Made by a program: the position numbers and the translations under genes. Below, piece after piece: positions 4,553 to 34,205 of a stretch of 62,976 bases of DNA; positions within the stretch are counted from its first letter, which is position 1, and each line of letters begins with the position of its first letter. The notes below the pieces were generated by a model. That model was given only the letters and a program-made list of their open reading frames with translations. It did not search any database and was not told where the DNA came from. The stretch comes from an uncultured Collinsella sp. (GTDB lineage: Bacteria > Actinomycetota > Coriobacteriia > Coriobacteriales > Coriobacteriaceae): NCBI GenBank assembly GCA_958348565.1, contig CATVZP010000001.1, forward strand, positions 1-62,976, given 5' to 3'.

Positions 4553-7500
4553 CTACTTGCTTTCGAGTCTCATCTCAACAGCTTCAATGGGAAGACCGCG
4601 ACCGGTTGTGCCGGCGGTGACGCCGTTTTTAACCCAGGGCATCCAGCCAATGTTGGAAACGTGCACGCGATATAAAATGTCGTAGTGCTTTGCAAGATCG
4701 CCGGTGAGCTTCACTTCCAGCGCTTCCATATGGCGTGATTTGCCCGTTGTGCCCGTGGCGCGCCCGTTCGAGGTCCATGTGTTCTCCCATCCCTGGTTGG
4801 CTACGTGGGAGCGGTAGGTAATGTCCCCGTTGAAGGGGGCTCCGGAAACGGAAAGCTTCAACGCTTCAACGCCCGGGGTCATCCCCGTGGTGCCAGCATA
4901 TGTAGTGCCGTGAACGGCTGCCTGCCAGCCAATGCTAGAGACATGCGCGGTTACGTTGGGCAGGCCGATGATGGATGCGCGCGCAGTGCTTCCTGGCGCG
5001 GCATCATCCTTCTCAACAAGCTTGACCTCGATTGCCTCTACGCGCCTGCCAAAGCCCGTGGTGCCCGCGCTCTCGCCGTTCTTGGCCCAGCCAAGCCATC
5101 CTTCGTCCTGTACATGGGCTCGATAGTAAATGTCGTAGTGCTCGGCGAACTCGTTGGTAAGCCTCATTTGGATAGCTTCGATTTGGCGCGATTCGCCAAC
5201 GGTGCCCGCGACTTCACCTTCGTTCTTCCAGCCTTGCCAGCCAAGGTTTGCGCAATGGGCTTGGTATTGCACCGTGCCGGAGTAGGGGAGGGCCGCCATG
5301 TCGACTTTGAACGCCTCGAGTGCCTTGGACTTTCCCGTGGTGCCAGCGGTCTTGCCCTCCTTGACCGAGGAGATCCAACCCGTTCCAGAAACGTGGGCAG
5401 AGGTCATAAGGGTCGAACCGTTGGTCTTCGTGCGAACCAGCCTGTACGTTCCATCGGCAAGCTTCTTGTAGTACGTGAGCGCGGACGTGTTGCCAGAGAA
5501 TACGGCAATGTCGTAATCGGCGGACTTTAGAATCATATCGGAGAATTCAACGAGGTAGCACGTGTCGCCCTTGGGGCAGAGGGCTTGGATAGCCGTATCT
5601 GAAGAAGATGAGATGGGTGAAGCGAACCAATCCATAATGCTGTAGTCGACCGTGCTCGACGGACTGAAGGCCGCGGCTTTCGTCATGTTGAACACGCCGC
5701 ATCCCGCGTCACCCGTTGCCGAGTTGTACGTGCTCGATCCATAGCCGGACAGCGCAACTTCGGGGTTGAAGAACAGGATTAGCTCGGCTGCCACCGAAGA
5801 GTCGATATCGGTAATTCCCAAGGAGCTCAACTGGTCTTGCTTGGAGGGCCACAGCCCGGTTGGCGTGTTGGGGTGTCCCTTGTAATAGTAGGCGTACTCG
5901 TCTCCGTAGTAGGTCATGGTGAGCTTGGCGTAGTCTTCGAACGACTGCTCTAGGTTGACGTAGGTGCCCAAGAGAACCATGGGCTTTTTGCCTTCAGCTT
6001 CGGCGGCGGTGAAGTAGCCGTCGTTGAAGTTGTAGAGTGCCTTGAACGCCGCGACCGTTGCGTCGCCACGTTGCTGGAGCGCGGTGAGCATACTCGCCAC
6101 GTTCTTCTTCTTTACCGCCGGATCGGTGGCAATGGCGTTGGCAAATGCGTTGCCGTCAGCGCTCTGGAACAGGTTCGCGCGCGTCATCCACCATTCAGTG
6201 TTCGGCTCGCATTTCAACACGGCGTACATGGAGTCCCAATGGGCGTGCCATCCGTAGTCCGAGCTTGCCTGTCCGTTCTTGTATGCGTACTCCTTGGCGG
6301 CCAGCCAACTCTGCTCAAGCTGGGCTTCCTTGGCGGCGGGATCCACACCTTCAGCGTTGAATGCCTCGTTCATGAAGTTGTAAGTAGCCGTTCCGTCAGA
6401 AAGAAGATAGATCTTGTAGTTGTCCTGGGGAATCTGGTTGGCGTAGATGATCGAATGGATGAGCGAACAGGTAATGTCATTGATGAACAGGTTGAACTTC
6501 GAGTCGGGCTTCAGACGCTTGAGCTCCTTTACGTAGCTTGCAAAAGCGCTGTAGTCGCTGGAGACCTTAACGGCGTCTTCGGTCATGAAGGGCATGGCGT
6601 ACATGCCGCTGGGGAGTGCATTCCAGTTAAATGCCGACGGGCGGTCGAGCATGACAATGGATGGCGCCGCGGTGCCCGTGGCGGAGGTGGTGTAGTCCCA
6701 GTAAGAGATTGAGTAGAGGACTACCGGGAAGGATGCAGAGAGGGGTGCGAGGTTGTACTCACTCGCGGTCACGCCGAATTCGCGGGTGTCGGTGCCAACC
6801 ACGCGACCGTCCTTGAGGTACTCGATGGTTGCCGTGAACGGTCCGTAGGTTTCAACATTGAGCGCCATGCCGTTCGCGTTGATAGTTGCCAGCGAAGTTG
6901 AGCCGGACACCTTGCGGGTCACGGTGTCGCCGTACGCCATGGTTGCGGTTACGCGCATGTCCGTGGCGACGCCGTCGGTGCGCAGAAGGTTGAGCGAGTC
7001 GGGACGTACGCGGACGACGGTGGACTCCCCCTCCTGCGTAATGGATGTCTGGTAGTACGAGGGAATGTAGGCATCTTTGTCAGATGAGGGCGCTTTATCG
7101 CCGTGTTTCACCAAGAGGATTTCGACGGCTTCAGCGCGATAGTCCCAACCGGTCGTACCGGCTATTTCGCCGTTTTTGGCCCAGCCAAGCCATCCGAAGT
7201 TCTGGGCATGAATGCGGTAGTACACGTCGTAGCTGCTGGCAATGTTGCCCGTGAGCTCGATTTGGATTGCCTGCATGGAGTACGACATGCCCGTGGTACC
7301 CGCCACGGCGCCGTCTGCCACCCAGTCCTGCCAACCCACGTTGGTGCAATGCGCGCGGTAGCGAATGCCGCCGTCTGCGTTGGCAAGGGAGATCTTAAGG
7401 GCTTCGATGGCGCGTGCTTTGCCCGTTGTTCCGACCGTTGCACCGTCCTTGCTGAGGTCGGGCTCCCAGCCTTGGTCGCTGACGTGCGCCGCGTATTGAA

Positions 7501-25939: not shown

Positions 25940-27586
25940 ATGATGAACAAACAAGATGGACTAGTTGCCGCGTGGTACGTACCCACCCCCACTATGGGCG
26001 GCGGTGGATTTCGAACCATTCTCCAAAATGCCGCCGCGCTCTCTTGCCGTGGATATCGCAATGACTTTTATGTGATTCCTCCAGAAAATAAAGTTCTTGA
26101 TCTTTTGTTCGTCGAGGAGTCTTGTTTAGCGTGGTTTGGCATGGCTCCTGATCGTTGGCTCCTTGCAGGTGCTAATGAGGAAGATCGAACTCTTTCCATT
26201 GCGACGTCCTGGGACACTGTCGAGTATCTGGCTTCGAGTTCACATGGCGCTCCTGGCTTTTATTTCGTTCAGGATTATGAGCCTTGGTTCTTCTCCTTGG
26301 ATAGCAACTTTCTTGCTGCGGAAAACACGTATCGCCACGGGCTTCGAGTTGTCACCATTGGCAAGTGGCTCGCGGGAAAAATAGACAGAGAATATGGCAG
26401 TGTGCTTGGATATACGGACTTTGGCGTTGGTCCGTCTTACTATTCAGAGAACCTCGGCTGCCGTGAAAACTCGAAGCCGGCTTCAGAGCACGCCGTATGC
26501 GCTATTTATCAGCCTGAAAAGGGACGACGCGTTGCTCCTCTGCTCGTGGAGGCAATTCGCGTTGCACTGGAGCTCGATCCATCGCTTACGTTTTATCTGT
26601 ATGGCTCTGATGCCCCGGTGCCCATTTCCGATCATCGCGTGGTGTCGCTTGGCTTGATTTCTACCGATGAATGCCGCGAGCTCTACTGGCGTTGCAAATG
26701 CGGAGTATCGCTCAGTATCTCAAATCCCTCACGCATTCCTTTCGAAATGATGGCGTGCGGGCTTCCCGTCATCGATCTCTACCGGGAGAACAACCTATTT
26801 GATTTTAGGGACGGTAGTCTTCTGCTTGCGCGTTCGGATGCAGCTTCCTTGGCAACGGCGATCGTGTCGCTGGCTGCAGATAGGGAGAAACAGGATAGTC
26901 TGCGCAAGGGAGGTCTTGATCTTGTTGCCGAGCGAACGGTTGCTTTAGAGTCTGATTGCTTTGCGAACTTGGTCTGTTCTGATCTGGGCGCGGGTGGTTT
27001 TGATGGCGCCTCAATCCGTCAGACTTATACTTGCGCACCCGTTGAGGCATCTGACGAGGCTCTTGCTGTCGAGCGTCGCCTTGTCGAAGAGTCGCACCGC
27101 TCGCGTGCGGAAGCGTGTGTACCTGTTATTTGGCCTGACTCTGGCATTTGCGTTAGCTTTACATCATTTGAGCCCGCTGGCGATGCGCGTTTAGCTGTTT
27201 GGTCCATGGGGGATCAGTCGGATCTTCAGTGGTTTCAGATGGATGGGTCTGATGCGGATTTCCAGGTGCTTGTTGACCGGGAAGATGGCTGGGACGTCGG
27301 ATGTCGAACCTACAACTTTCATTTCTACATCAACGCAAGCAAGGGTGAGCCCGTGTTTGCCGGTAGCGCTGTTGTCCCGCTGTCTCCTGATGTGTCTGTG
27401 GGGAAGGTCGAAGCTGCTGTTCCAATCTTGGGGGGAGAGGTGCGAATCGCGGAAGCGCCTATCACGAACCTCGTCTGCGGTGAGCCCGTTTCCGATATCG
27501 ATGATACTGATAGCGGGGCTAGGGAGACGTTTCCTCGAAGGCTTAAGGCATGGGTGGATCGCTGCATAAAGGGCGGGGTTGCGTAG
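25940..27586 (+). CDS. WsaF-like GT4 glycosyltransferase with C-terminal Bsp-like repeat
   Basis: [41 protein letters not shown]-terminal [12 protein letters not shown]...TYNFHFY. Confidence 0.78.
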
Positions 27587-27720
27587 AGTCGGGAAGTAGA
27601 TCGACGGACGGGCGTGCTCGACATTGCACCTCGTCCTACTTTTGTGCAGCTTCGCAGCCCGCGTGCCCTCTCGCGTATACTAGTACCAACTGTGTACGCC
27701 CAACTTTGGAGGTCCAATCT

Positions 27721-28620
27721 ATGAAGGGCATCATCCTCGCGGGCGGCTCGGGCACGCGCCTGTACCCGCTCACGCTCGTCACCAGCAAGCAGCTGCTGCC
27801 GGTCTACGACAAGCCGATGATCTACTACCCGCTGTCCACGCTCATGCTGGCGGGCATCAAGGACATCCTGGTCATCTCCACGCCGACCGACCTGCCTAAC
27901 TTCGAGCGCCTACTCGGGGACGGTTCCCGCTTCGGCGTGAACCTCTCCTACGCCGAGCAGCCCTCGCCGGACGGCCTGGCGCAGGCCTTCACCATCGGCG
28001 AGGACTTCATCGCCGGCGAGCCGTGCGCCCTCGTCCTCGGCGACAACATCTTCTACGGCAACGGCCTGTCGCGCCACCTGACGCGCGCCGTCCAGAACGC
28101 CGAGTCGGGCCGCGCCACGGTCTTCGGCTACCACGTGGACGACCCCGAGCGCTTCGGCGTCGTGGAGTTCGATGCGCAGGGGAGGGCCGTCTCCATCGAG
28201 GAGAAGCCCGCCGAGCCCAAGAGCTCCTATGCCGTCACCGGCCTGTACTTCTACCCGGGCGACGTGGCCGCCAAGGCCCATAAGGTCCAGCCCTCCGCCC
28301 GCGGCGAGCTGGAGATCACCACGCTCAACCAGATGTACCTGGAGGAGGGGACGCTCTCCGTCGTCACCCTGGGCCGCGGCTACGCGTGGCTGGACACCGG
28401 CACCATGGAGAGCCTGCACGAGGCCGCGGAGTTCGTCCGCGCCGTGGAGCACTCCCAGGACCTGCCGGTCTCGGTCCCCGAGGAGATTGCCTGGGAGAAC
28501 GGCTGGATCACCACCGCCGAGCTTGAGGAGGCCGCGACGGCCTACGGCAAGTCGGTCTACGGCCAGCACCTGAAGAAGGTCGCCGCCGGCGAGATCGTCA
28601 ACAGCCCGCGCGAGTACTAA
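27721..28620 (+). CDS. rmlA: Glucose-1-phosphate thymidylyltransferase
   Basis: [52 protein letters not shown]. Confidence 0.97.
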
Positions 28621-28644
28621 TTGCCCGGTGAAAGGGGGCGAGAG

Positions 28645-29256
28645 ATGATCGACATTCTGGAGCGCGATGGCCTCTCCGTCGAGCTGCTCTCATCCCTTTC
28701 TTATAAAAGCGAGCTAGGGATATCGCTTAAGAAGAACCTGCACTATTTTGATCGGGACCTCCTGCTTGATGAGCTCTTTCGAGCTAATGAGTGGTATCAA
28801 GGCCAATCGGCATTGGTTGACTTGCCTATAGACAGTCGAATTAAATCTCTTCAGTCTATCAAGCTTAAGTTAGACCGTTATTGGCCCGATCATCAAGTGC
28901 GTAAAGTCTTTAATGACCTTCTCGGCTTTCGATCCATTGTTGATTCTTATGAATCCGTTCTTGCGTTAAGCGGTTCTGATTTTAAAGTTGTTGATCTATC
29001 TGCTGGAAAAGCCATAGACGACGGTTATCGTGGCGTTCATCTCTATTATGTGCGTGAAGCTCGCTGCTATCCGATAGAGCTTCAGTACAATACTTTCTTT
29101 GATAGGCAGTTAAACAACTGGCTTCACAAGTATTTGTATAAGAAGACCGTTGATTCGAAGATTGGTGCCTTCTTGCGAATGCGCTACGAGGCCGGTTTGA
29201 TTCATGATGAAGCTGAGTTCAGAAGGGAGTTGGCTGATGCGCTATCTGGTTGCTAA
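28645..29256 (+). CDS. Stand-alone RelA/SpoT-like nucleotidyltransferase (small alarmone synthetase-like)
   Basis: SRIKSLQSIKLK, NDLLGFR, DGYRGVH and IELQYNT match the SYNTH motif order. RBS AGGGGG. Low GC. Confidence 0.72.
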   Translation: MIDILERDGLSVELLSSLSYKSELGISLKKNLHYFDRDLLLDELFRANEWYQGQSALVDLPIDSRIKSLQSIKLKLDRYWPDHQVRKVFNDLLGFRSIVDSYESVLALSGSDFKVVDLSAGKAIDDGYRGVHLYYVREARCYPIELQYNTFFDRQLNNWLHKYLYKKTVDSKIGAFLRMRYEAGLIHDEAEFRRELADALSGC

Positions 29257-29467
29257 GTGGTTTTCTAAGCAAGGTTCGCTGGTAATGGCCGTTAAACCAG
29301 GCAAGGAGCTTGTTGAGATGATGCGAAGGGTACAGGGTCGTTTTGGCACGTCTGACCTTCAGCTCGTTACCATCAGTCGTCCTTCTGCATACGGCGAGTA
29401 CGAACCGTTTGAGTTTGTTCATTCCGAAGAGCAGCTTGTGGAACGCCTTGAGCAGCAGGCTGCGTAA
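29237..29467 (+). CDS. Small conserved-looking hypothetical protein (76 aa), overlapping the SAS-like gene; candidate antitoxin/partner
   Basis: RBS AAGGGAG; MRYLVAK...QLVTISRPSAYGEYEPF; 20-bp overlap with the upstream gene. Resembles a DUF6718-like family from memory (unverified). Confidence 0.65.
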   Translation: MRYLVAKWFSKQGSLVMAVKPGKELVEMMRRVQGRFGTSDLQLVTISRPSAYGEYEPFEFVHSEEQLVERLEQQAA

Positions 29468-30499
<1,032 letters not shown>

Positions 30500-30513
30500 G
30501 TTACCACACTGAT

Positions 30514-30638
30514 CGAGGGCGCTGTCGCGAACTACTCGCGGCGGCGCCCGAGTACGCGAGACGCCTTCTCGGCCCGTGCACGGCGAGCTCCCTTGCGGAC
30601 ATGGGGATGATCCCGGGGGAGCTCGCCGCGCACGGGCC
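30514..30638. repeat. Double-hairpin intergenic element between rmlB and rmlCD
   Basis: GGCCCGTGCACGGCGAGCTCCC (30571-30592) pairs 21/22 with 30617-30638. An upstream nested hairpin contains TACTCG/CGAGTA and TCGCG/CGCGA. Confidence 0.6.
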
Positions 30639-30663
30639 GGGACTTTGGAAAGGAACGGACCCT

Positions 30664-32151
30664 ATGGCAGAATTTGAATTCGAGAAACAGCTCACCGTAA
30701 CGGAGACCGGCATCCCCGGCCTCAAGGTGGTGGACCTCCCCGTCCACGGCGACAACCGCGGCTGGTTCAAGGAGAACTGGCAGCGCGAGAAGATGGTGGC
30801 CGCGGGCATCCCCGACCTGCGATTCGTGCAGAACAACATCTCCTTCAACGACAACAAGGGCGTCACGCGCGGCATCCACGCCGAGCCCTGGGACAAGTTC
30901 ATCTCCGTGGCCACCGGCTCGGTCTTCGGCGCGTGGGTGGACCTCCGCCCCGGCGCGGGCTTCGGCAAGGTCTTCACCTGCACGCTGGACCCCTCGCGCG
31001 CCATCTTCGTGCCGCGCGGCGTGGGCAACTCCTACCAGGCCCTGGAGGACGGCACGGCCTACACCTACCTGGTGGACGCCCACTGGTCGCTCGAGCTCAA
31101 GAAGACCTACACCTTCGTGAACCTGGCCGACCCCGAGCTCGCCATCCAGTGGCCCATCCCTCTGGAGGAGTGCGAGCTCTCCGAGGCCGACAGGGCGCAC
31201 CCGATGCTCGCCGACGCCCTGCCCATGGCCCCGCGCCGCACGCTCGTGACCGGCTGCAACGGCCAGCTGGGCCGCGCCGTGCGCGCCATGGCCGAGGAGC
31301 GCGGCCTTAACGGCTCCTTCGACTACTGCGACATCGACACCTTCGACATGTCCGACCCGGCGGCCTACGGCAAGTTCGACTGGTCGCTCTACGGCACCGT
31401 CATCAACTGCGGCGCCTACACCGCAGTGGACAGGGCGGAGACCCCCGAGGGCCGCAAGGCGTGCTGGGCCGCCAACGCCACGGGACCGACGCTGCTCGCC
31501 CGCACGTGCGCCGAGCACGGCATCGCGCTCGTGCACGTGAGCTCGGACTACGTGTTCGACGGCACCGCGGAGCTGCACTCCGAGGACGAGGCGCTCTCGC
31601 CCCTCTCCGTCTACGGCCAGTCCAAGGCCGCCGGTGACCTCGCCGTCGAGTCCTGCCCCGCGCACTACATCCTGCGCTCCAGCTGGGTCATTGGCCGCGG
31701 CCACAACTTCGTGAAGACCATGCGCGCTCTCTCCGACCGCTGCGCCGACGCCGGGGACGCCCTCGAGCGGGTCACCGTGGTGGACGACCAGGTGGGCCGC
31801 CTCACCTTCACCGAGACCATGGCCGGCGCCATCTTCCATCTGCTCGGCTACCGCGAGGGCGACATGGAGCCCACGGCCCCGGCGCCCTACGGCCTGTACA
31901 ACTGCACCAACTCCGGCGACGCCGCCAGCTGGGCCAAGATCGCCGCGGCGGTGTTCGATCGCGCCAACGGCAACGGCGGCAGGGTGGTGCCGGTCTCCAC
32001 GGCGGATTATTACGCCAACGCCGCCGGCCCCATCGCCCCGCGCCCGGAGCACTCCGCGCTGGACCTCTCCAAGCTCGATGCCACGGGCTTTGCGCCCGCA
32101 GACTGGCACGAGGAACTCGACGTGTATATGGACGAGTTGTTGGCTGAGTAA
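30664..32151 (+). CDS. rmlCD: Fused dTDP-4-dehydrorhamnose 3,5-epimerase / reductase (RmlC-RmlD)
   Basis: HGDNRGWFKE..TRGIHAEPW (RmlC); TGCNGQLG, AYTAVD, HVSSDYVFDG, YGQSK, VDDQVG (RmlD). RBS GAAAGGA. Confidence 0.93.
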   Translation: MAEFEFEKQLTVTETGIPGLKVVDLPVHGDNRGWFKENWQREKMVAAGIPDLRFVQNNISFNDNKGVTRGIHAEPWDKFISVATGSVFGAWVDLRPGAGFGKVFTCTLDPSRAIFVPRGVGNSYQALEDGTAYTYLVDAHWSLELKKTYTFVNLADPELAIQWPIPLEECELSEADRAHPMLADALPMAPRRTLVTGCNGQLGRAVRAMAEERGLNGSFDYCDIDTFDMSDPAAYGKFDWSLYGTVINCGAYTAVDRAETPEGRKACWAANATGPTLLARTCAEHGIALVHVSSDYVFDGTAELHSEDEALSPLSVYGQSKAAGDLAVESCPAHYILRSSWVIGRGHNFVKTMRALSDRCADAGDALERVTVVDDQVGRLTFTETMAGAIFHLLGYREGDMEPTAPAPYGLYNCTNSGDAASWAKIAAAVFDRANGNGGRVVPVSTADYYANAAGPIAPRPEHSALDLSKLDATGFAPADWHEELDVYMDELLAE

Positions 32152-32257
32152 GCTGTTTCTCATTCTTGTTAAGCTTGCTTGCACGTTTAACCTTCGGGAG
32201 TACGCTATTCCTGTAGTGTCGTTAATAGCTTACAAGGCATGCTTTAGATTTCTGCTA

Positions 32258-32293
32258 AAAGGGGAGGGTGCCCAATAGAGCACCCTCCCCTTT
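32258..32293. terminator. Bidirectional intrinsic terminator
   Basis: AAAGGGGAGGGTGC-N8-GCACCCTCCCCTTT between convergent genes. Confidence 0.75.
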
Positions 32294-32339
32294 GCGTGTG
32301 GAATATGTTGGAGCGGCCTAACCTGATCGCGCAAAAAGC

Positions 32340-34205
32340 CTACTGCCAGCCAGCAACTTCCTGGGCCGTGGGGGTGGTGCGTACGGCAAGCTCCGTCTGG
32401 GCATCCGTGGACGTGGTTACCGTAAACGTCAAGGTCTCCTCTTCCTGCGGGGCGAGCTGGACCTGTCCGCCGTATTGCCAGACCTGGCAATTACCGTACT
32501 TGGTCTCGGCATACGTAGTGCCGGCGCTGGACTGGATGTTTGAAATGGTTCCGTTGGCCGGCGCGTACAGCGTTACACCGTAGATCATGTTGCCGAGCGC
32601 CTTGAGCTCCGGGTTGTAGCCGGAGATGTAATGCGTAAGCGTCTGGGCCTCTTCGGTCGTGCAGTTGTTCTTTACGCGAACGGTAACGTCGTACGTCTTC
32701 GACCCGTCTGCATTTGCAGTGCCCTGGCCAACCTCGATATGGGAGCTTAGATACCAGCTCATCTTTGCCCAGGTGTTGTCATCAATATAGACGCCGAGCT
32801 CGGGAACGGTGCTATCTTGCGAGACAGCACCCTCGAGACCGAGTTTAGCGATCGCATTCTCTTCGTCTGCGTTTTCCATCCATACCATCACGCGGCCGGC
32901 TTTGGCGTCCTTGGCCACGGTTTCTATGAGGGCGGTAAGATCGACCTTGCCCAGATTGCTCATTACCTGCTTAGCAGCTGCGCCAGCAGCTTCTGCAAAG
33001 TATGGGTCTTGATCCGGAACGGCTTTTTCGAGGTACACGTTTTGGAGGAGAATTGTTGCGGCATTGGTGCCATCGATGGTGGAGCCATCGCTGAGCGTAA
33101 CCCCGCCGGTGAGTGCAAGCAGGTGCTGCAGGAACACGGGATCGACCGCTATCGCTCCGTTGGCCACATCTCCCACGCGGTCCGCCCAGAGGTCGCGTAC
33201 GTGCATTCCGGTAGAAGACCAATCGGGGTTCGTGGTGATGAGCTGGGGAATCTTGGTGTAGCCGTTGGGATACATCGTCTGTTCGACCTCGGTGGTGGGA
33301 AGCGTTCCCTCGCCACCGTTGAGCTTTGAAATGCCGGAGAATTCACCGAGTTCGATCTTGCCGTTCGTGACGGTGAGTAGACCGGTGGAGCCGGGGAAGC
33401 CGCCCGTGGCGCGTAGCTCGGAGTTGTTCTGGGCAACTACGACATACGTACGTGTTTGGCCATTTGCGCCGAGCATCTGCGGCAAGTACGGAGCGACTGC
33501 CGATGCGGCGTTTACGGTGTCGTTGAGGGTGGCTACGAGGGGCTTGGCTTTTTCAAGAGCTGTCTGTAGCTGGGCGATGTGCGCGTCGGGGAGAGCGCTC
33601 ATCTCTTTCGCGGCCTTGTTTATAGATGGCTTGGAATTTGAGAGAACGGTGCACACGTTGGTTAGCAGGTTGATGTTGATGGATCCGTTTTCGGTAAAGA
33701 GGGTGTTGAGGCCCTGACCCTTGAGCGCCTCAGCAACGGGCGTGAGCGCGTCGTTTGCAAGCGTATCGAGCGTTGCCGAGATGGTCTGAACGGACTTCAC
33801 ATCGCTCCCGAGAACCGGAATAAAACTCGCGATATTCCAGAGTGCACTCGAGGTGGTCGAGTGCATGCGCCCGGCCGCGGCATCGATGTTCTGAGCAGCA
33901 TCGAGCACGCCGTCCATGTTTCCGGTTTTTACGCTTTCTGAGGCATTTTGCGCGCTGGCAATAATGGAGTCTGCATCCGTTTTAACGTCCTTGACTTACC
34001 TGAGGAGGACAGCTCCGGAGGCGCCGCAAGCGACGAGCAGAGCAACGACGATGCCTACGACGATGGGCCAGCGCTTCTTCCTGCGAATCCTTTTGCGCTC
34101 GAGTGGTTCTTCATCGTAGAGAAGATCAAGATACGGAAAGTGAGCGTATTGGGCGGTATCGCTGGAATTGTGGTATTCGTTGCTGTTGGAGAAATGAGAC
34201 CCCAT
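32340..34205 (-). pseudogene. DUF4012 membrane-anchored protein, interrupted by in-frame TAA at 33996-33998
   Basis: ATG 34205 with RBS GGAGGG, basic patch plus TM, then LLR*VKDVKTDADSII.. continues in frame into ORF 32340-33917 with AQNNSELRATGGFPG, NPDW, AVDPVFL, AKMSWYL. Confidence 0.82.

Follow-up and report, generated by a model that had tools for sequence, protein, structure and literature searches.

The toxin FaRel2 and its cognate antitoxin ATfaRel2 from Coprobacillus sp. D7 (Thomasclavelia ramosa; PDB 8PU1–8PU4), a pair of the toxSAS family, are the closest described relatives of two overlapping genes that lie between rmlA and rmlB in a 62,976-nucleotide (nt) stretch of DNA from an uncultured Collinsella sp. 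(assembly GCA_958348565.1, contig CATVZP010000001.1; hereafter the window). For the prototype, published work covers toxicity, neutralisation, the structure of the complex and the tRNAs that are targeted, and the Collinsella pair itself is not new in kind; as judged from sequence comparison, it very probably forms a functional toxin–antitoxin (TA) module of type II that belongs to the same family. According to PMC11782079, FaRel2 coordinates the donor ATP and Mg through R64, K66, S70, K74, R77, D90, G93, R95, E145 and Q147, carries its G-loop tyrosine at Y128 and binds tRNA through K28/R29, and ATfaRel2 combines a 51YXXY54 motif with the scaffold residues V43/I45 and a secondary interface of R47, Y57 and F59. 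The result for the FaRel2 Y128A mutant is that of PMC7229694. CapRel(SJ46) is related in being a tRNA-CCA pyrophosphokinase of the toxSYNTH type whose pseudo-Zn-finger domain (pZFD) neutralises it, a YXXY motif being placed at the donor site for ATP (PMC11782079); it differs in being a single polypeptide, the pZFD of which is also a sensor of phage capsid, whereas the Collinsella proteins are encoded by two separate genes.

The first of these, open reading frame 1 (ORF1; 28645..29256, + strand, 203 amino acids (aa)), is by its database matches a full-length homologue of the solved toxin. A phmmer search of the PDB matched it to the FaRel2 chains 8pu4_A, 8pu1_B and 8pu3_C with E values of 1.7e-59 to 3.5e-59, the best alignment (8pu4_A, E 1.7e-59, 204.5 bits) pairing query residues 4–203 with chain residues 3–203. 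At E≤10 the search returned FaRel2 chains and a chance match to RNase Z, with no RelP or RelQ chain. All 11 ATP-site and G-loop positions (R65, K67, S71, K75, R78, D91, G94, R96, Y128, E145 and Q147) are identical to their FaRel2 counterparts, and K29/K30 take the place of K28/R29, the basic contact to the tRNA acceptor stem. In an alignment of 24 family members, comprising Collinsella lineages and Firmicutes relatives, K29 is invariant and position 30 is K or R, and the functional positions of toxin and antitoxin are invariant or at least 85% conserved. The original prediction, made from the letters of the window, had named a candidate toxSAS–antitoxin module on the basis of four ordered motifs; these are present (RIKSLQSIKLK at 65–75, DLLGFR at 91–96, GYRGVH at 127–132 and IELQYNT at 144–150), and the full-length homology, with the catalytic and neutralisation residues kept, supports that assignment. 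Its further description of a divergent small alarmone synthetase, based on ELQYNT, does not hold, as this motif is the form of the FaRel2 family and reads EIQFNT in FaRel2 itself.

The second gene, ORF2 (29237..29467, + strand, 76 aa), matches Pfam DUF6718 (PF20476) with 92.3 bits against a cutoff of 27, over profile positions 1–73 of 74, and the ATfaRel2 chain 8pu1_A with an E value of 5.2e-15 in the PDB sequence search. It is, on these matches, a homologue of the cognate antitoxin of FaRel2, of the pZFD type. The neutralisation motif is intact, with Y52-G-E-Y55 aligned to 51YXXY54, and V44, I46, R48, A51, F58 and F60 correspond to V43, I45, R47, A50, Y57 and F59 of ATfaRel2; Y57 is thereby replaced by F, and the string RP.AYGEY.P is invariant among the 24 relatives. 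The Collinsella pair thus resembles the prototype in the lengths of both proteins (203 versus ∼204 aa and 76 versus 73–75 aa), the order of toxin then antitoxin, the overlapping frames, the ATP-site and G-loop residues and the YXXY motif. It differs in sequence identity (∼55% for the toxin and ∼47% for the antitoxin, by-eye estimates from the alignments), in having K for R29 and F for antitoxin Y57, in its actinobacterial host and in its location within an rmlA-rmlB-rmlCD operon, the prototype standing alone.

By homology, the free toxin would transfer pyrophosphate from ATP to the 3′-CCA end of uncharged tRNA, and the modified tRNA would be blocked in aminoacylation, bringing translation to a stop. 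The antitoxin is expected to dock on the toxin by β-sheet extension, so that its Y52-x-x-Y55 motif would plug the ATP donor site by stacking on R65 and R96 and leave the tRNA-binding surface of the toxin exposed. As published, the FaRel2 prototype favours tRNA-Gly as well as tRNA-Thr, reading acceptor-stem base pairs 1, 2, 4 and 5. In the genome to which the window belongs, tRNA-Gly(CCC) and tRNA-Gly(UCC) have four of these four determinants and the three tRNA-Thr genes have three of the four; plausible targets therefore exist in the host.

The cassette begins at the rmlA stop codon with a 24-nt spacer (28621..28644, + strand) containing the toxin ribosome-binding site GAAAGGGGG, which lies 6 nt upstream of the ATG at 28645. 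ORF1 ends with its stop codon at 29254–29256, and ORF2 runs from an ATG at 29237, preceded at 7 nt by AGAAGGGAG, to a stop codon at 29465–29467, so that the two genes overlap in different frames over 20 bp (29237–29256). Longer versions of the ORFs, of 211 aa (from TTG 28621) and 87 aa (from ATG 29204), are upstream extensions; it is the shorter starts that agree with the alignments to FaRel2 and ATfaRel2 and with the DUF6718 profile. Between ORF2 and rmlB lies a spacer of 12 nt (29468..29479, + strand), which holds AAGGAGAA as the ribosome-binding site of rmlB and belongs to the cassette lineage. The left anchor of the site is rmlA (27721..28620, + strand; glucose-1-phosphate thymidylyltransferase, Pfam NTP_transferase, 253.6 bits), which is conserved, and the right anchor is rmlB (29480..30499, + strand; dTDP-glucose 4,6-dehydratase, Pfam GDP_Man_Dehyd/Epimerase, with 251 bits for GDP_Man_Dehyd). 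A fused rmlC-rmlD (30667..32151, + strand; dTDP_sugar_isom, 132 bits, and RmlD_sub_bind, 213 bits) closes the probable transcription unit. The rml genes lie in a locus for cell-surface glycan that also encodes glycosyltransferases of the GT2 and GT8 families, two WsaF-like proteins of rhamnosyltransferase type, a DUF2142 protein and a flippase-type protein.

The reading of two overlapping, low-GC ORFs of 203 and 76 aa interrupting a GC-rich gene pair is borne out by the sequence and the ORF list. GC content and GC at third codon positions (GC3) are 0.44/0.47 for the toxin and 0.51/0.52 for the antitoxin, compared with 0.68/0.97 for rmlA and 0.66/0.965 for rmlB; GC3 is 0.95 in rmlCD, and the whole genome has a GC content of 0.60. 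The first codons of rmlB are AT-rich, as had also been noticed, with a GC content of 0.33 in codons 1–10 and a GC3 of 0.98 in the remainder of the gene. The rmlA-cassette-rmlB arrangement is no assembly artefact, since the same 893-nt junction recurs in 18 other genome records and an independent DNA contig of 964 nt covers 28546–29509 with 2 differences. The 24-nt and 12-nt spacers leave no space for a promoter of the pair's own, and a simple consensus scan of 27300–32400, weak evidence given a consensus untuned to Actinobacteria, found 0 promoter-like and 0 terminator-like sites; the pair is therefore most likely transcribed together with the genes of the dTDP-rhamnose operon.

Several observations suggest that the module is alive. 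Both ORFs are intact in all 18 of the other 893-nt junctions. Across 11 distinct alleles, the toxin has a median ratio of non-synonymous to synonymous substitution rates (dN/dS) of 0.18 and the antitoxin one of 0.05. Toxin and antitoxin are covered by contigs of two metatranscriptome libraries, each from a different study, with one contig crossing the overlap; DNA carry-over is possible. In the RNA-library contigs of X16 (organism B) and most of those of X17, positions 28711–29013 are uncovered, although holes between contigs prove nothing, and a loose end in X16 before 29480 is the right edge of a different occupant of the same site, the DUF4869 and ATPase module described below. As a separate observation, contigs in three RNA-library runs join ∼28619–28621 to ∼29501–29503 and skip the cassette, the intervening letters being marked as not known; gut samples therefore contain junctions that lack this cassette alongside filled ones.

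Some points weigh against a functional FaRel2/ATfaRel2 module. The Pfam RelA_SpoT profile (PF04607), proposed earlier as a check, is spanned almost entirely by ORF1 (positions 1–111 of 113, E 2.5e-5), yet the score of 25.0 bits falls below the cutoff of 27, and NCBIfam has no family for either ORF. Toxicity, neutralisation and tRNA modification are properties that we infer from identities of ∼55% and ∼47% to the prototype. The tRNA specificity of ORF1 may also differ from that of FaRel2, the acceptor-stem recognition surface being described as the variable part of toxSAS. The evidence from RNA libraries consists of contigs, in which DNA carry-over is possible, and that for co-transcription of the spacing and the negative promoter and terminator scan. 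The source is a metagenome-assembled genome with 84.9% completeness and 3.6% contamination. Finally, the frequent loss of the toxin in relatives, described next, shows that the module is dispensable.

A scan that used one genome per species found the 893-nt junction, at the identical site, in 18 further records, most of them titled Collinsella and three 'uncultured bacterium'. A 97% identical copy of the cassette lies in NZ_QRZD01000005 of Collinsella sp. AF14-35. In a nineteenth locus, L046 (titled Treponemataceae and likely mis-binned), a scaffold gap breaks the junction; a toxin–antitoxin fusion with an 868-nt junction, which was considered for this locus, was rejected because the apparent deletion is a run of 10 N at that gap. 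A search of 60 relatives, 36 of the same genus and 24 of the same order, did not find ORF1. An ATfaRel2 homologue was present in 20 of 400 other sampled Collinsella species genomes. An intact, near-identical pair is found in three of the 20 (G086, G105 and G368) and a pair cut by the contig end in one (G284). The antitoxin is intact beside a frameshifted or internally deleted toxin in two (G177 and G292), and in seven (G036, G065, G155, G225, G274, G328 and G383) ∼21 codons of the toxin are left, with an antitoxin ORF of 88–89% identity lying 910–911 nt upstream of rmlB. Three genomes (G094, G299 and G415) retain an antitoxin remnant adjoining rmlB. A second lineage, with 62–66% toxin identity, occurs as an intact pair at the rmlA|rmlB junction in two genomes (G293 and G143) and elsewhere in the genome in two (G133 and G306), the G306 pair being placed between leuS-like and IMPDH genes.

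An intact antitoxin thus stands beside a deleted or frameshifted toxin in 10 species genomes, namely nine of the 20 antitoxin-positive genomes and L072 from the scan of one genome per species. At the five loci compared individually (L068, L071, L072, L011 and L086, of which L068 and L071 appear to be those of G177 and G292, having identical contig coordinates) the FaRel2 gene is frameshifted or deleted, and the antitoxin ORF is intact at 88–99% identity. Three different toxin deletions were distinguished, two of which begin after codon 20, where the GC-richer first 20 codons of the toxin end. The toxin is the costly partner of the pair, because 10 species genomes keep the antitoxin beside a broken toxin.

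Outside the genus, relatives with 46–59% identity occur in Blautia, Lachnospiraceae, Erysipelotrichaceae, Faecalibacterium and others. Conservation of the gene pair in its neighbourhoods, one of the checks put forward with the original prediction, is evident here: in 16 of 17 full-length non-Collinsella relatives (L051–L067) the antitoxin match begins 7–17 nt before the end of the toxin match, the contig of the seventeenth (L053) ending inside the antitoxin, and the same gene order is seen at all Collinsella loci. No rml gene was found within 4 kb of these 17 relatives. Plasmid relatives are represented by nine records from Clostridium, Clostridioides and Cetobacterium, with 36–49% identity over 54–72% of the query, and in two of them DUF6718 is annotated beside the match. 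A search of 1.84 billion cluster representatives gave 390 matches at E≤1e-3, 36 of which reach E≤1e-30; the FaRel2-like family is small, and many of the matches are fragments. A contig binned as Erysipelotrichaceae (L074) carries a truncated remnant of a Firmicutes-type FaRel2 with its antitoxin at 583–1027 and, ∼3.7 kb downstream of that remnant, a 97% identical start of a Collinsella-type rmlA (4729–4842); this may be another insertion site near an rml locus or a mis-binned contig.

Identities of cassette and flanks are decoupled. At one locus (L037), rmlA and rmlB are 93.4% and 94.3% identical to the window and toxin and antitoxin 99.8% and 100%; at another (L035), rmlA is 99.9% and rmlB 93.3% identical. 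Since the cassette often matches the window more closely than its flanks do, the alignments indicate that it has moved between Collinsella species by homologous recombination in the rml flanks, with breakpoints near the cassette edges. The cassette-bearing junctions share ATG TCT GAG ATT TT(T/C) GAA CC at the rmlB start, and two empty junctions with the same MSEIFEP N-terminus (L009 and L010) read ATG TCC GAG ATC TTC GAA CC. These shared, synonymous AT-rich codons and the decoupled identities lend partial support to the earlier proposal that exchange took place by recombination inside the 5′ part of rmlB, whose ∼10 AT-rich first codons travel with the inserts. At the left edge, filled junctions have TAA followed by ttgcccggtgaaagggg and empty junctions TAG followed by gaggaacccctc. 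The 12-nt spacer before rmlB is kept in all 18 other junctions that carry the FaRel2/ATfaRel2 cassette.

With respect to the anchors themselves, nucleotide identity of rmlA is 91–100% across the compared Collinsella loci, except for L026 (81%) and the divergent copies in L013 and L016. More generally, rmlA and rmlB are mostly 91–100% identical between Collinsella species, with a few divergent alleles at 66–83%, and rmlCD falls into two allele classes of ∼75–87% and 99–100% amino-acid identity. Together with a GC3 of 0.95–0.97 for the rml genes in a genome of 60% GC, this points to strong selection on codons, to recurrent sweeps of rmlA and rmlB, or to both.

Comparison of the junction across genomes, which had been recommended along with the original prediction, revealed filled, empty and alternative states between rmlA and rmlB. 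The survey covered 29 rmlB loci from 60 sampled congeners. The commonest state is a pair consisting of a DUF4869 protein (149 aa) and a 324-aa P-loop protein resembling OLD-type ATPases, present at 12 loci, 10 of them full-length (one with a frameshifted DUF4869 gene) and two with a truncated ATPase; the order rmlA-DUF4869-ATPase-rmlB was confirmed for the 10 full-length loci. Eight loci have an empty junction of 46–61 nt. At two, rmlB lies beside a divergent rmlA, and at two others a glycosyltransferase takes the place of rmlA. One locus holds a pair of 63-aa and 198-aa proteins, one an orphan antitoxin followed by a pair of 61-aa and 198-aa proteins, and the remaining three junctions are divergent or cut. 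In the larger sample, rmlB is present in 192 of 400 Collinsella genomes and the 324-aa protein, full length at ≥93% identity, in 79 of 400, with an rmlB match exactly 79 nt downstream in at least 59 of those 79 genomes among the matches listed. Mosaics also occur, with the order rmlA-DUF4869-FaRel2′-ATfaRel2′-rmlB in G293 and rmlA-DUF4869-69 aa-FaRel2′-ATfaRel2′-rmlB in G143. In each of them the large gene of the earlier module is gone and its small partner is left; such orphan small partners are the DUF4869 gene in L079 and L080 and the 69-aa ORF in L080. No integrase was seen within the slot itself.

These states can be accounted for by a dedicated intra-operon slot, for which we consider the case evenly balanced. 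According to this model, three unrelated two-gene conflict modules swap by homologous recombination in the rml flanks, borrow the transcription of the rhamnose operon and lose their large gene first, leaving an orphan small partner as a record of past occupancy, and DUF4869 with the ATPase would be a new two-component system in which an LSGG motif is supplied in trans. The three modules of this model are FaRel2/ATfaRel2, a small protein with a GNAT-like acetyltransferase, and DUF4869 with a mini OLD-like ATPase-Toprim protein, and the G143 mosaic would be an example of such a record. Defence and TA hot spots are fixed sites between conserved genes that hold alternative, horizontally exchanged conflict modules. 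The rml slot differs from these in lying inside an operon, between consecutive enzymes of a pathway, in the tiny size of its modules (0.9–1.7 kb) and in their apparent reliance on operon transcription. No paper was found on a toxSAS in an rml operon or on this slot, although the neighbourhood datasets of PMC7229694 may list Collinsella FaRel2 genes and their rml neighbours. Co-mention of toxSAS with rmlA, or a mention of DUF6718/DUF4869, was not found in a literature search that left ∼1.7 million PMC articles outside, and searches on Collinsella with toxin–antitoxin and rhamnose, on rmlA and rmlB with toxin–antitoxin, and on Collinsella defence hotspots gave no title or abstract on the arrangement.

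The pair adds an actinobacterial lineage of gut commensals to a family with worked-out biochemistry, and provides a native, abundant host in which to seek the still-missing biological trigger of FaRel2. Its context is the more useful part, a 0.9–1.7 kb slot with an occupant in most of the sampled Collinsella species that carry rmlB. Should the slot be real, it would offer a compact natural system for the gain, replacement and domestication of TA and defence cassettes and a handle on the uncharacterised, widespread pair of DUF4869 and the 324-aa ATPase, and the co-expression of surface-glycan operons with conflict systems would be directly testable.

As to the role of the module, one idea is that of a selfish addiction cassette of no benefit to the host, whose loss would kill the cell and which would ride on recombination between the conserved rml flanks. 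At the five loci mentioned above it is always the toxin that decays first, the antitoxin ORF staying intact, and small partners from other modules likewise persist as orphans. The cassette is rare (in 400 sampled species, three intact copies and one truncated at a contig end), and its identity exceeds that of its flanks. However, the toxin is itself under purifying selection (dN/dS 0.18), and a second lineage of ∼65% identity has been kept at the same site in G293 and G143; for these two reasons some retained function can be argued, and we place the addiction reading somewhat short of an even chance.

A role in abortive-infection phage defence, in which a phage cue would free the toxin and translation would stop before progeny form, is possible but less likely than not; placement in the operon for a rhamnose glycan, a likely phage receptor, would tie two layers of defence together. 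The coupling of defence to surface-glycan expression and the stabilisation of the locus, both put forward in the original prediction, are likewise hypothetical. The toxSAS relatives CapRel and PhRel:ATphRel protect against phages, as reported in the literature, and ORF1 gives a partial match to the PADLOC candidate PDC-S33 (E 1e-6, 26.5 bits, profile positions 68–168 of 349), which corresponds to the shared synthetase core. The alternative slot module resembles ATPase-Toprim proteins of the OLD/Gabija type, and, as at defence hot spots, what the slot contains is polymorphic and passes between species. However, the prototype FaRel2:ATfaRel2 expressed in E. coli is reported to give no protection against more than 60 coliphages, which the authors of that work attribute to the heterologous host. 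No phage sensor is known in the antitoxin, a protein separate from the toxin; 50,697 phage records, searched at the protein level, gave no match to ORF1 at E≤1e-5, and the toxin has been lost in 10 species.

It is most unlikely that the toxin is instead an alarmone-producing toxSAS like FaRel/Tas1, acting by (pp)pApp synthesis and ATP depletion and leaving tRNA unmodified. FaRel and Tas1 share the toxSYNTH fold and the coordination of donor ATP with ORF1, these residues being common to all toxSAS, but they differ in product and in antitoxin class (Tis1/SAH, acting at the acceptor site) and gave no sequence match at E≤10, the PDB matches being FaRel2 chains only. According to PMC11782079, (pp)pApp producers are neutralised by Tis1/SAH at the acceptor site and pZFD antitoxins block the donor site of tRNA modifiers. 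ORF2 is of the pZFD type by its profile match, and the tRNA-binding K28 of FaRel2 is invariant in the family alignment.

That the pair is an inactive relic, unexpressed or no longer toxic in this genome, is highly improbable: sister species do hold relics of this very cassette, but both ORFs in the window are intact, with good ribosome-binding sites and all functional residues kept, and are identical or nearly so to alleles on which purifying selection acts. A housekeeping small alarmone synthetase of the RelQ/RelP kind, making (p)ppGpp to regulate cell-wall glycan synthesis, is scarcely credible, since the weak RelA_SpoT match and the location in a metabolic operon are all that favour it, against PDB matches confined to FaRel2, a dedicated antitoxin partner, a composition foreign to the operon and the failure to find the gene in the 60 relatives.

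Returning to the slot, the DUF4869 protein (145–149 aa) and the 324-aa protein occupy L090:1826–3256 in G003 and lie in the same way in L089–L098 and in at least 59 of the 400 sampled Collinsella genomes; 7116 relatives were found for the former and 2295 for the latter. The model of the 324-aa protein has a predicted local distance difference test score (pLDDT) of 91.7. Its N-terminal half is like the heads of ABC-type ATPases (Z 8–9.3), and its C-terminal half aligns with the OLD C-terminal region 6nk8_B (VIA-align; Z 8.2 and a root-mean-square deviation of 3.8 over 140 residues, a borderline match). A Foldseek search against the PDB gave no match at E≤1e-3, the best being OLD 6p74 and GajA with E values of 1.5e-3 to 2.4e-3, and beyond the P-loop this protein was assigned to no family of Pfam, PADLOC or NCBIfam, nor was any protein of the alternative modules assigned to an NCBIfam family. 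The 324-aa protein is thus like the OLD family (P2 Old and Gabija GajA) in having an ATPase head and an OLD-like C-terminal half, and differs in being about half the size and in its pairing with DUF4869, whose LSGG-like motif is modelled at Walker A/B.

A model of the complex of DUF4869 with the 324-aa protein passed its controls, with a score of 0.77 compared with 0.00 for the best control; of the solved complexes 58 out of 80 reach the mark for this score, as do 2 out of 110 mismatched pairs, a calibration that is rough because custom alignments were used. Runs agree in at least 71% of contacts, the partner pLDDT is at least 85, and DUF4869 residues 70–73 (within PLQLSGGVKT) are set against Walker A/B residues 29–38 and 87–90. 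The model suggests that the two proteins may together form a split ABC-type ATPase. Paralogues of the ATPase (39–43% identity, in frames of 329–339 aa) are also found elsewhere in many Collinsella genomes, away from rmlB, for example at G004:C24:30997–31914.

The third kind of occupant is an ORF of 61–69 aa followed by a 198-aa GNAT-like protein, located at L087:2978–3768 in G002 and also in L086 and L011 (G036 and G065). The 198-aa protein has seven relatives in a word-index search. Its AlphaFold2 model, built from a 7-row alignment, has a mean pLDDT of 50.6, which is too poor for a fold search, and its profile gave a top row in the PDB that is unrelated and otherwise non-significant acetyltransferase rows only (E 0.027–0.27). 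It matches PHROG 1758, 'acetyltransferase', with an E value of 9e-33, and the corresponding protein-atlas clusters are labelled GNAT (0.96). The layout of a small ORF followed by the 198-aa protein resembles that of TA pairs with GNAT toxins.

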